From Promethearchaeota archaeon (GTDB lineage: Archaea > Asgardarchaeota > Lokiarchaeia > Sigyniarchaeales > SOKP01), in assembly GCA_019057795.1 (NCBI GenBank), contig JAHLWS010000074.1, forward strand, positions 21,725 to 85,724: a stretch of DNA of 64,000 nt. The letters are read 5' to 3'. This document shows, piece by piece, positions 1 to 27,710 of this stretch. How positions within the stretch are numbered: the stretch's first letter is position 1; the number at the start of each line of letters is the position of its first letter. The translations under genes and the position numbers were made by a program. A model generated the notes under the pieces. It saw only the letters and a program-made list of their open reading frames with translations. It searched no databases and was not told the DNA's origin.

Positions 1-3000
1 AATTTTGGAACTACGAGAACAGTTTGGAATTTAGGAGGCACCCATACTTTAAATCCTATACCTTACCTTCAGCAACCCAACTTGAATACCTTTATTCCGA
101 TAAAGAATTCAAACGATATTCATTTAAATCCGATAACAATTGACAATCTTAACGAGGATACTATAAAAGACGGCGTTATTAAGTTGGCTCTCATTTCCTA
201 CGTTCTTCCAAGTAATGGAAGTTCGTTCTCGTTTGATCGCGCTGATCCGTTTACTCCCATTAGCGTGAGTCAAAGTATTGACCTTGTTGAATCGTTATTT
301 ATCGGAGAATCCGTTCAGTTGATGCATCCTGATTCAAGCATAGAAACCTCTTTGGAACTTGACTCCGGGACTTATCGAGCTGATTTGTCTGGATTGGATA
401 TAGGAGAGATCGTTGCAGTTAAGGGGATTTACGTCGATCCAGATTCCGTAATTCAGCAGTATCCAATCGAATATTTCTGGATTACCGATAGCAACGAACT
501 AGCTTTCAATTCACCGATGAAGCACCTATTTTCCAACGTTTCAATCGAATACGTACCCCAATTACCGCTCACGGAGAATTATCCAGCGGAATTTCCGGGT
601 TTCTACTATCTTCCTAATTCTACGATAGTGGGCTCTACCACGTTCACGGAGCCATATTTCGTTACCAATGTTGAGGACGATACGACATTTTTTGGAACGT
701 ATGTGCACCCCGACATTCCCGTAGGTTATAGCTTAAGCCACAATGAATATGGATGGTACGTAGTCTTCGATCAATCGGTTTCTAATCCCCGAGGTGCAGT
801 CCGCTTTGCCAAGATCAATAACACTTATATTTCCATATTCTCAATAAAAGATACCTTGGCGTACAAATATAATATTTTGGATTCAGCGTCGGATTTTGCC
901 GGAGGAACCCTTAATTTAATTTTAAAAGCCGGATTTAACGACGTGTTTTATTCGGAGTTATCACAAGTAGCGTGCAACGATTATAAAGTAAAAATTACAT
1001 TTTTTAAGAGGGATATTAATGGTATAGAGACAAATATTGGGACGGTTTATAAATTATTAGACTCTTCACAATTAGGTTTTCACAGTTATAATTTAGAAAT
1101 TTCCCTTTCGGAAATTACAGAAGGGATAGGATTACTCGTTGATGTGATAAGTAGAGATTCTGAAAGCGAACTTTACGTTACCGTAGAATCGATAATAAGC
1201 AACTCCAGAGTGGACGGAAACTTATTTAAGGGCTTTTTTGCTCAAGAGATCGTAGAAGCAAGCCTCATTATTGACACTCCCGATTCGGAACTATTATTTG
1301 ACGATATGAAAGTGGAGACGCCTTATATAGAAATACCTCAACTGAGCATTCCGTTGACCAAAATTGCGAAAGCCACTTATCAATTTGATTTAAGTTCGTT
1401 AAAATATAATTTTGATTTTGATATCACAGAGATCCGCGCCGAAGGAGTACCCCTTTCGCAGCAAGATTACGAGTTCGATCTTTCTCAAAATATAGTTGTT
1501 TTAAAAGGGGATTATCGAGAATATTCCGGCTTACTTTTTGCTGATCTGTCATATAAAGCGTTTGAATGGAACGACGGATTCGTTTCTACGCTGGAACCGA
1601 TTTCGTTCAATTTTGCTACCAATTATACGGATAAAATCGCCAAATATTTAGTATTTGACATCAATTTTGACTCAGCCGGAATTCCTGGTTATCAATTGGA
1701 AAAAGTTGATACCGCTTCAGGAAGAGTTGTAATGGCAGAAGAAAGCAAAGACGCGACCTCATTATTGCTGTATCTCTATAATTTTATAGAAGATAAATGG
1801 GAGTTTATAGATTTTGTAGTGTACGATACATATCTCGGCTCATTTACATATGTTGCGGATAGATTGTTTACCACTTTCGAAGATTATTTTAACTCCACAG
1901 GAACAAGTGAATTTGAAGTAAAGCTCATGCTCGCCGTTGATGAGACGGTTGGAGACTGTTTCTCGTCTTCGGTGGGGTTTATTATAGACCAAATTAGCGC
2001 AAATATATACTTTAAATCTCCTAATGTCGAACATTCTGTGAGACCAGAAGTAGTTTTTGACGTCGATTTAACCAAATACTTTACCGATTCAAACATCTAC
2101 GTTGATGAAGTTCAGTTAAAGCTGGATTATATCAGCAAAATAGATAGTTCTTTTGCGTTTTCAGAACACGCTTTAATTGAAGAAAACTATAATTTTTACG
2201 TTTTAAATAAATTTTTAGAATTTGAAGAGGTAGAATTGATTGACAGATCAATAATCCTTTCAAGAAATGCGTTAAATGACTTATTATTATACGATTCTAA
2301 TAACGAAAAGTATTTCGTTCAAATAAAAATCGAGTACGATTGGAATTGTATCCTTGAAATGAACATTGAGTTCGACTCGCGCTTGGAAATTAAATCTTCC
2401 TTACAATTGCTCGATTATGCGCTAACCGTTTCTTATACCGAATACGAGATTACGCGAATATCTGCGCAAGAGACGCGTTCTCCTTACGAATTGACGGCGA
2501 TCTATGCCCCTGGTTACGTTCAGAATGCTACGGGTTTTGTTATATTAGAGACAGACAACATCGTAGATATCGGAACGCTAGCCGGGTTTTTGCGAAACGC
2601 GGATTCGCGTCAGAGACTAATGCTTCGTCAGCAATTATATTATCAATTTTCTGAAAGTACAGATGGGCCCATTGCTCTTTTATTAGATCAAACCTACACC
2701 GATATTAATTTACGATTTGTAAGCCCACTAGGAGAATTAACGCGACCGCAAGATTTTATTTGCGATAATACATATTTCCAGTTTATTGTAGACCACGAGG
2801 TCGTTTCTGTCGAATTACTGTTCTTTAACGGTACCGATTACGAACAAGTCGGATTTTTCGAACAAAGCTTTTTATCGCAGATTTTATACGAATACGGCTG
2901 GAACAATATTTCAGGTGCAACCGAAAAAAATACGGGCGATTTTGTCCAGATAAAGATAATATTAACTGATATTTTTAACAATAAAAACGAAATTATTTAC

Positions 3001-26789: not shown

Positions 26790-27710
26790 ATGTCGGAAGA
26801 ACATTATTATTGGAACGAAATATTTTTTGAAAAATGCGGCATTGTATTATCAGAATATCAAAACGATAGAAACATGCTAAATAAAGCGATTTTAGAGAGA
26901 CATTTAGACGATCTTATTAATCTTGCAAACAGGTCAGGCGATATATCCGCCCATCAGACGCTTACGGTTTTAATCCTTCAAGTAGGCGCGAAATTGCCGA
27001 ACGATTTAAAAGAGAAAGTCTTAGAATCTTTAGAGTGGGAAAACGACAACAAAAGATATCACTGGTCTTCTTTCGTTGTTAACGTTAGAAAAGTTTATTT
27101 AGAAGATTTCAGGCAAAAAATTCTTAGTTACAGAAATAATAACATATCTTTTTTAATTAATCTAAGAAGAATCCACGACGATAAGAAATTAGAAAAGACA
27201 TTAATAGGCTTAGAACAGCTTAACTCTTTCTCAAGGTTAAGAACATTCGAAAAGATAGATTATATAAATTTGGATAGTTGTAGATTGGCCGACATGCCCG
27301 AAGAAGTATTTAGGTTTTCAAATCTTTCTGCTTTAAGCTTAGATAATAATTTCCTAACCACATTGCCGGACTCAATAATAAATTTACATAATTTAAAAAA
27401 ATTGTATTTAATAAACAATAAGATTAAAATCCTTCCATCTAGTATAGGAAGTTTAACTTCATTGGAATCGATTTATTTGTCCTATAATCAGATAGAAAGT
27501 TTACCCTCTTCACTTGGAAATCTTAAGAATCTTAGATCGTTATATTTAAATAATAACAATTTAAAGTCAATTCCAGATACATTCAGAACTTTAAATTTGA
27601 ATATCTTTAATTTGCGAAATAATCGTATAAAAGATATTCCTGTTTTTTTAAAGGAGAGTTCTAAATATAAAAAAGTATTTTCTACTAAAGCTTTCTTAAA
27701 CAAAGAATAA
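26790..27710 (+). CDS. Leucine-rich repeat protein with an unknown helical N-terminal domain; candidate immunity protein
   Basis: About six 23-aa LxxLxLxxNxLxxLPxxIxxL repeats. Co-oriented, 62 bp downstream of the giant gene. Confidence 0.85.
   Translation: MSEEHYYWNEIFFEKCGIVLSEYQNDRNMLNKAILERHLDDLINLANRSGDISAHQTLTVLILQVGAKLPNDLKEKVLESLEWENDNKRYHWSSFVVNVRKVYLEDFRQKILSYRNNNISFLINLRRIHDDKKLEKTLIGLEQLNSFSRLRTFEKIDYINLDSCRLADMPEEVFRFSNLSALSLDNNFLTTLPDSIINLHNLKKLYLINNKIKILPSSIGSLTSLESIYLSYNQIESLPSSLGNLKNLRSLYLNNNNLKSIPDTFRTLNLNIFNLRNNRIKDIPVFLKESSKYKKVFSTKAFLNKE

Follow-up and report, generated by a model that had tools for sequence, protein, structure and literature searches.

A giant membrane-anchored protein of Lokiarchaeia with an exchangeable nuclease tip and a linked leucine-rich-repeat gene: a probable polymorphic toxin-immunity system

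We found that a giant gene in the window, the 64,000-nucleotide stretch of Lokiarchaeia DNA analysed here, and the small leucine-rich-repeat (LRR) gene behind it probably belong to a polymorphic toxin-immunity system of Lokiarchaeia, in which a giant anchored carrier with a previously undescribed delivery body bears a candidate toxin at its tip and the downstream gene encodes the candidate immunity protein. The protein family combines a constant trafficking part with a variable C-terminus, tips of known toxin enzyme classes, downstream genes linked to particular tips, and stand-alone tip cassettes and orphan immunity genes that are dispersed; we infer contact dependence, translocation, toxicity and immunity for the system in the window. 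Coordinates of the features discussed are collected in Table 1.

Table 1 Features of the window, with nucleotide positions counted from its first letter
Feature	Position	Strand	Basis or description
Giant protein, 3' 8,908 codons	1..26727	+	Single open frame; upstream end outside the window
Laminin G / concanavalin-like module	3337..3678	+	Pfam PF02210, E 8e-10
Sialidase-like carbohydrate-binding module, one of several similar	4738..4968	+	Pfam PF22585, E 1e-6
Laminin G-3 module	9601..10059	+	Pfam PF13385, E 1e-46 for the stretch
Putative calcium-binding DxDxDG loop cluster	20950..22230	+	Loops at 20950, 20992, 21349 and 22210
Family-defining conserved core	22321..24753	+	Ala/Gly-rich, weakly hydrophobic long helices around a beta-rich insert
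First exchange point	24900..24930	+	C66 paralogue matches at 87% DNA identity over 4 kb, up to nt 24915
Pre-tip helical domain, ~125 aa	25012..25365	+	Ends in junction motif LERxIxDVxxFYMGG
GIY-YIG (URI) nuclease domain	25642..26010	+	Predicted structure compared with I-TevI; E and N invariant in alignment A1
Helix-turn-helix array behind the nuclease	26029..26682	+	Tip model
AT-rich spacer with T-runs and a TATA-like stretch	26728..26789	+	Sequence inspection
Partner gene, 306 aa, candidate immunity protein	26790..27710	+	Helical N-domain (~125 aa) and leucine-rich repeats
Orphan HNH-like ORF	49218..49856	-	34% identical to the tip of family member L041

The open frame that the earlier note described was traced upstream on the contig (C74), giving a protein of 13,767 residues whose start methionine lies at C74:7148, 14,577 nt before the window. 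No signal peptide was found at the N-terminus thus recovered; instead, five strong membrane helices (residues 300-454; 19-residue Kyte-Doolittle 2.4-3.1) follow a soluble stretch of about 300 residues. Because basic loops follow helices 2 and 4 of this anchor, the positive-inside rule predicts that the chain past it would lie outside the cell. A Loki-CTERM surface-protein gene lies just upstream (C74:4778-6628), and such a gene holds this place in 7 of 15 giants.

The body, some 11,000 residues long, is beta-rich and carries lectin modules. The acidic body and basic tip of the earlier note are borne out by composition (Asp plus Glu ~15% and Lys plus Arg 4.5-7% in the body; Lys plus Arg 14-16% in the tip), and the DxDxDG loops it described were located, four in number. 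Its lectin modules stand, as laminin G and sialidase-like carbohydrate-binding domains, but the immunoglobulin modules come down to one weak Big_13 match, below cut-off and outside the window. Nor is the body sequon-rich as had been claimed: residues 461-11800 hold 119 sequons against 121 expected, which is chance level, with enrichment only in residues 8001-11800 (57 against 39), and none lies past residue 12,880, where about four would be expected. Residues ~5900-8200, which include the tabulated sialidase-like module, are missing from one paralogue (C77, see below); a metagenome scan with the body insert returned only generic laminin G matches.

The core region was matched in 52 of 400 genomes of the phylum and in 48 of 134 of the host family; open frames in core-matching genomes run to as many as 20,619 codons, and a profile search returned 313 representatives at 50% clustering. 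Every N-terminus read carries membrane helices, from 2 to 13 of them. With the query used, no family member was found on viral contigs. In ~60 fetched loci the homology with the window protein breaks off near residue 13,050-13,200, and 135 tips, compared over their last 220 residues, fell into 62 BLAST clusters, in keeping with the earlier proposal of a constant body and a variable region after about 24.9 kb. Beyond the first exchange point, many tips switch after the FYMGG motif (nt 25351): the pre-tip domain and its junction motif stand ahead of unrelated tips in 12 loci, representing five enzyme classes (GIY-YIG, HNH-like, PD-(D/E)xK-like, LAGLIDADG and RNase), and body-less cassettes start at the same motif. 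Ubiquitin-like or S24/S26-like peptidase domains stand ahead of the tip enzyme in some relatives.

Across the family, tips comprise GIY-YIG, HNH-like and PD-(D/E)xK-like nucleases (the latter two assigned by motifs read by eye), LAGLIDADG domains (by Pfam), BECR RNases, Toxin-deaminases, one papain-like end (by eye) and untyped long tails. The profile of the RNase ends matches the Serratia CdiA-CT 7M5F over its length (E 0.002), which is a BECR-fold RNase toxin (PMC8616854), and Pfam Toxin-deaminase has matches in two tips (E 1e-6 and 1e-5, narrowly short of its curated cut-off), both with a co-oriented gene 39 bp behind them; these ends agree with the polymorphic-toxin layout that the earlier note saw in the window. 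An Atlas feature search gave leads below 0.9 (EndoU, Ntox35) for an RNase tip, and nothing for the window's partner.

The downstream gene had been expected to vary together with the tip, and partner families do track tip classes: zinc-finger genes accompany one HNH class, a 150-residue family accompanies RNase ends, and another family accompanies one PD-(D/E)xK class. Locus pairs with the same partner share a tip class in 37 of 47 cases (shuffle mean 7.6), a count that related genomes inflate and for which tip classes were partly set by eye. Three loci (L056, L084 and L105) have a common RNase end and partner family despite distant cores (28% for L056 and L084). Among 58 complete tips, 17 have an LRR gene behind them; for ordinary genes the figure is 0.3%. 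Co-oriented neighbours of any kind occur at 45% by chance, and this frequency counts against a toxin, as do the tips that stand without a co-oriented partner: 6 of 43 loci (~14%) with recognisable toxin-type tips, one of these convergent, and 10 of 14 untyped long tails. The gene after the L061 tip was considered as a partner, but it looks like a member of a common GTPase-like family and probably does not serve as one.

The window's own partner, seen in the earlier note as a small co-oriented LRR gene, starts 63 bp beyond the stop codon of the giant. The spacer is possibly the promoter of the partner gene, to judge by its sequence; a bacterial promoter scan stayed at chance level. The N-domain of the partner had no match in Pfam, NCBIfam or PADLOC, and a guess of DUF4259 obtained none either. 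Close orthologues (76-84% identity) were traced to nine loci, and in all nine the gene lies ~62 bp behind a window-type tip or a remnant of one. One of these tips belongs to a giant (L114); four are body-less, starting at the junction motif or shortly past it, in unrelated genomic settings; and at the remaining four loci there is a remnant in which the spacer and only the last 44 tip codons are kept. The partner has outlasted decay of the tip (L113, L115-L118). More distant tip-partner pairs recur, with the partner convergent at L037. A complex prediction for tip and partner scored 0.00 and was counted neither way.

Two paralogues of the giant in this genome carry other tips and partners. The longer (C77; 11,117 residues) is collinear with the window protein, sharing 61% identity across its final 5,000 body residues, and bears an HNH-like tip with two 113-residue zinc-finger-like genes behind it. 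The shorter (C66; 1,984 residues) has no front of the body and has a core that is 90% identical; its DNA follows nt 20888-24915 of the window at 87% identity and then passes into another HNH-like tip with another LRR gene. Orphan partners, some of them for tips not found in this genome, are also present, dispersed rather than arrayed behind the main gene: zinc-finger partners occur in eight clear copies, two of them behind the C77 giant and three behind tip-like ORFs; two orphan RNase-type partners lie in small arrays with LRR genes; and there is one further orphan partner of the PD-(D/E)xK type and one of the window's type. On sequence grounds this set is the pattern expected of immunity genes, and the orphan HNH-like ORF in the window is a candidate displaced tip.

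The helices of the conserved core lie at nt 22660-22716, 23986-24050 and 24538-24594, and a further weakly hydrophobic helix (21190-21246) lies within the DxDxDG cluster. The Ala/Gly-rich hydrophobic helices of the earlier note are therefore present, but they are weakly hydrophobic, with Kyte-Doolittle values of 1.6-1.8 (19-residue) against those of the N-terminal anchor given above; in 48 homologues, two C-terminal helices have a median hydropathy of 1.7-1.8, at least 2.0 being reached in 10-23% of them. Our model of the core (pLDDT 76) consists of long helices. No clear structural match to it came from Foldseek PDB, from VIA-wide, where generic helices scored best at Z 7.6, or from Atlas, and Pfam, NCBIfam and PADLOC do not recognise the core; these negatives do not make the fold a new one. 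Translocation is therefore deduced from position and composition only, and we infer that the core is a membrane-insertion region.

The same weak helices could instead anchor the chain in the producer's own membrane, in which case the giant would be a tethered sensor or abortive-defence protein whose cytoplasmic tip, held by the LRR protein, is freed by a pull or ligand on the body and acts on the producer's own or incoming DNA; a membrane-tethered sensor was also the alternative that the earlier note offered. Conservation of the two helices at their characteristic hydropathy would suit such a protein, as would the ubiquitin and S24-like domains of some tips and the resemblance of the helix-turn-helix arrays to regulators. 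The stretch past residue 12,880, free of sequons and cytoplasm-like in charge, and the median of 1.7 for the last helix fit a cytoplasmic tip and speak against a toxin. The true anchor of this protein is, however, far stronger than these helices, between which calcium-loop motifs and sequons are found, and strain competition accounts better than a single signalling output for the dozens of mutually unrelated tips and for the orphan cassettes and partners; we consider a sensor unlikely.

The GIY-YIG domain that the earlier note placed at the tip is not recognised by Pfam, whose calls contain no GIY-YIG, nor by NCBIfam or PADLOC. An AlphaFold model of nt 25357-26724 (pLDDT 84) matches the I-TevI catalytic domain (1ln0) with Z 9.9 and an rmsd of 2.3 over 91 of 92 residues, and T4 EndoII with Z 6.7. 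The catalytic residues are in place (Y13420, G13440, R13449, E13509 and N13526, at nt 25681, 25741, 25768, 25948 and 25999, respectively), making nuclease activity plausible as far as the model goes; the tyrosine of the YIG motif is replaced by isoleucine, an observation that weighs against a toxin. The nuclease had been described correctly, but the helix-turn-helix array behind it had been missed; its last pair (26329-26682) is a structural match to an AraC-like double helix-turn-helix (Z ~10). Long DNA-binding arrays of this kind on family tips also tell against the toxin reading, since Zhang et al. (PMC3482391) state that polymorphic-toxin nucleases lack them.

Genes related to the tip (25-38% identity) often stand alone next to housekeeping genes and lack a partner, another observation less favourable to a toxin. 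These free-standing GIY-YIG/helix-turn-helix genes point to a homing-type origin of the tips, judged by sequence likeness, and because the tip resembles homing-type nucleases of this sort, rival readings keep some probability. The tips could be selfish cassettes that have joined the reading frame of a giant adhesin at its 3' end, on a mobile island, and are expressed from an internal start (there are two Met codons at the junction), with the giant serving adhesion or DNA transfer and the nuclease helping the island to spread. The tips include all four homing-endonuclease fold classes, together with DNA-binding arrays; free-standing relatives are widespread, and the junction Met is where body-less cassettes begin at otherwise unrelated sites. 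By inspection, ParB-like, small helix-turn-helix-like and recombinase-like genes lie upstream of several giants, and the DNA of the window giant is richer in G+C than the genome (~38% against 31%). Yet RNase, deaminase and papain-like tips cannot home, nucleases of the homing kind need no partner whereas the partners here persist after the tips decay, and no tRNA gene lies near the window giant; selfish cassettes appear quite improbable.

An assembly chimera or chance fusion, which a metagenome-assembled genome with 7.5% contamination might invite, is scarcely credible given 13,767 codons without a stop, an independent metagenome contig (L114) collinear with nt 20001-27698 from body through tip to LRR gene (83.5% identity over 7.7 kb), the collinearity of the C77 paralogue along the protein, and open frames of 9-20 thousand codons at loci of fourteen other genomes.

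Returning to the toxin-immunity system, we can outline how it may work. The anchor would set the body outside the cell, the weak C-terminal helices not stopping export; lectin modules would bind a neighbouring cell, whose membrane the Ala/Gly-rich core would then enter, passing the tip through. Cut free near the GG of the junction, the tip might be aimed by its helix-turn-helix array so that the GIY-YIG domain cuts the target chromosome, while the LRR protein would block the tip in the producer and its kin. Recombination at the end of the core or at the FYMGG motif could swap tip and partner as one cassette. More tentatively, and with clearly less confidence than we place in the toxin-immunity system itself, we suggest an Asgard lineage-specific contact weapon that uses an undescribed membrane-crossing module to deliver nucleases of homing descent and sequence specificity, as well as RNases or deaminases, into neighbouring cells, with LRR proteins as the main immunity scaffold and some tips released at a ubiquitin-like or di-glycine junction.

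If this is right, a role would emerge for giants carried by roughly one in three genomes of a single Lokiarchaeia family, cell-to-cell warfare and kin recognition would extend to close prokaryotic relatives of eukaryotes, and LRR proteins would be placed in self-protection in Asgard archaea. In the conserved core we see a candidate for a new protein-translocation module, and tip and partner are small enough for work in standard hosts. Classical polymorphic toxin systems are described as rare in archaea (PMC3482391), and we found no description of this protein family in the literature compared, which did not extend to Makarova et al. 2019 (mBio) on archaeal polymorphic toxins.

Giant genes of Asgard archaea have been noted before without a function (PMC8813620; 10.1101/2023.11.21.568195). 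As described by Wu et al. 2022 (PMC8813620), the aloposon giants Otus and Ephialtes of Heimdallarchaeum resemble the window family in being giant Asgard genes in island-like DNA with small upstream genes, and no toxin reading is proposed for them in the passages compared. Aloposons hold tandem genes of 3,000-6,000 residues at tRNA sites with a MinD/ParA ATPase, whereas the window has a single gene of 13,767 residues and neither it nor the DNA upstream has a tRNA. With free-standing homing endonucleases (I-TevI and Seg-type GIY-YIG, HNH and LAGLIDADG enzymes), compared in architecture only, the tips share a nuclease fold with tethered DNA-binding modules and have free-standing relatives in Lokiarchaeia; what sets them apart is their attachment, past a conserved junction, to a giant surface protein, together with the partner gene.

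Parallels are also found among toxins. PrsW-type toxins (PMC3482391) likewise have an N-terminal multi-pass membrane domain, no signal peptide, nuclease tips and sometimes a long filament, but PrsW has eight conserved helices where the window anchor has five and its homologues 2-13, and the giant's N-terminus gave no PrsW match in Pfam or NCBIfam. The hallmarks of CdiA and Rhs proteins (FHA, Rhs/YD, TPS domain, CdiB gene and HINT) had no Pfam or NCBIfam match over the stretches scanned, and a simple pattern scan yielded no YD, HINT or RTX, in agreement with the earlier note, which had seen no Rhs/YD, FHA or HINT motifs. Unlike those proteins, the family has an uncleaved multi-helix anchor, a length of 9,000-20,000 residues, a core without a known fold, tips of 400-950 residues with helix-turn-helix arrays, scattered orphans and commonly LRR partners. 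Shared with bacterial polymorphic toxin systems such as CdiA/CdiI and Rhs (Zhang et al. 2012, PMC3482391) are a constant delivery part, a variable C-terminal enzyme, a linked partner gene, stand-alone cassettes, orphan immunity genes and a pre-toxin junction like PT-VENN in CdiA. Two tip families are held in common, the CdiA-CT 7M5F-like RNase and the BURPS668_1122 deaminase, and URI nucleases (Tox-URI), BECR RNases and deaminases are all known toxin classes in bacterial systems, as Imm-LRR is a known immunity class (PMC3482391).

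Homologues of a secreted, Loki-CTERM-anchored protein encoded upstream of the window lie immediately upstream of seven of the 15 full-length giants, and this protein is possibly an accessory part of the giant system. By inspection, ParB-like or small HTH-like genes are found 5' of giants at the locus of the window giant (L001:717-1793) and at loci L152, L155, L161 and L165; at L165 a tyrosine-recombinase-like gene lies upstream of the giant as well. These upstream genes suggest that such giants reside on mobile islands.

Features in the window and elsewhere in the host genome (G000)
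Feature	Location	Strand	Remarks
Secreted protein, 616 aa, Loki-CTERM anchor	L001:4778-6628 (G000:C74)		Upstream of window
Free-standing GIY-YIG/HTH gene	L006:6125-7681 (G000:C21:96124-97680)		Flanked by housekeeping genes
Three long ORFs	G000:C78:154866-191524		Conserved 280-aa leader
Orphan HNH-like ORF	Window 49218-49856	-	34% identity over 193 aa to L041 tip
LRR-gene fragment	G000:C68:51096-51380	-	87% DNA identity to 3' third of window LRR gene
Ubiquitin, 84 aa	Window 58421-58675	-	Pfam E 5e-10
LRR protein, 554 aa	Window 60702-62366	+	N-terminal domain of L093-type family
Small arrays, RNase-tip partner and LRR genes	G000:C56:18150-21431; C58:20853-22120		Without toxin

The HNH-like ORF is likely a displaced tip; no partner gene was seen behind it. 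The LRR-gene fragment, by its DNA identity, appears to be the remnant of a second cassette, and the C56 and C58 arrays, whose genes are of partner type, are candidate poly-immunity loci. The family to which the N-terminal domain of the window's 554-aa LRR protein belongs is also found downstream of some giant tips.

The window ubiquitin is 52% identical to the ubiquitin domain inside the L058 tip. S24/S26-like peptidase domains or ubiquitin/ThiS-like domains immediately precede the toxin domain in several tips (L044, L045, L087; L053, L070, L041, L097, L058) and are candidate release mechanisms. Tails of 1,600-1,900 aa occur in a subfamily (L048, L049, L068, L073, L077, L080, L081, L083 and L092) with neither a recognisable enzyme nor a co-oriented partner, which may have a different output.

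The leader of the three C78 ORFs is common to free-standing GIY-YIG proteins in other genomes, and on sequence these ORFs appear to be a second carrier type for GIY-YIG nucleases. Further GIY-YIG/HTH genes stand free amid housekeeping genes at L179-L183. The same radical-SAM-like gene adjoins several free-standing GIY-YIG/HTH genes on their downstream side in different genomes, a placement that resembles that of homing-type nucleases.
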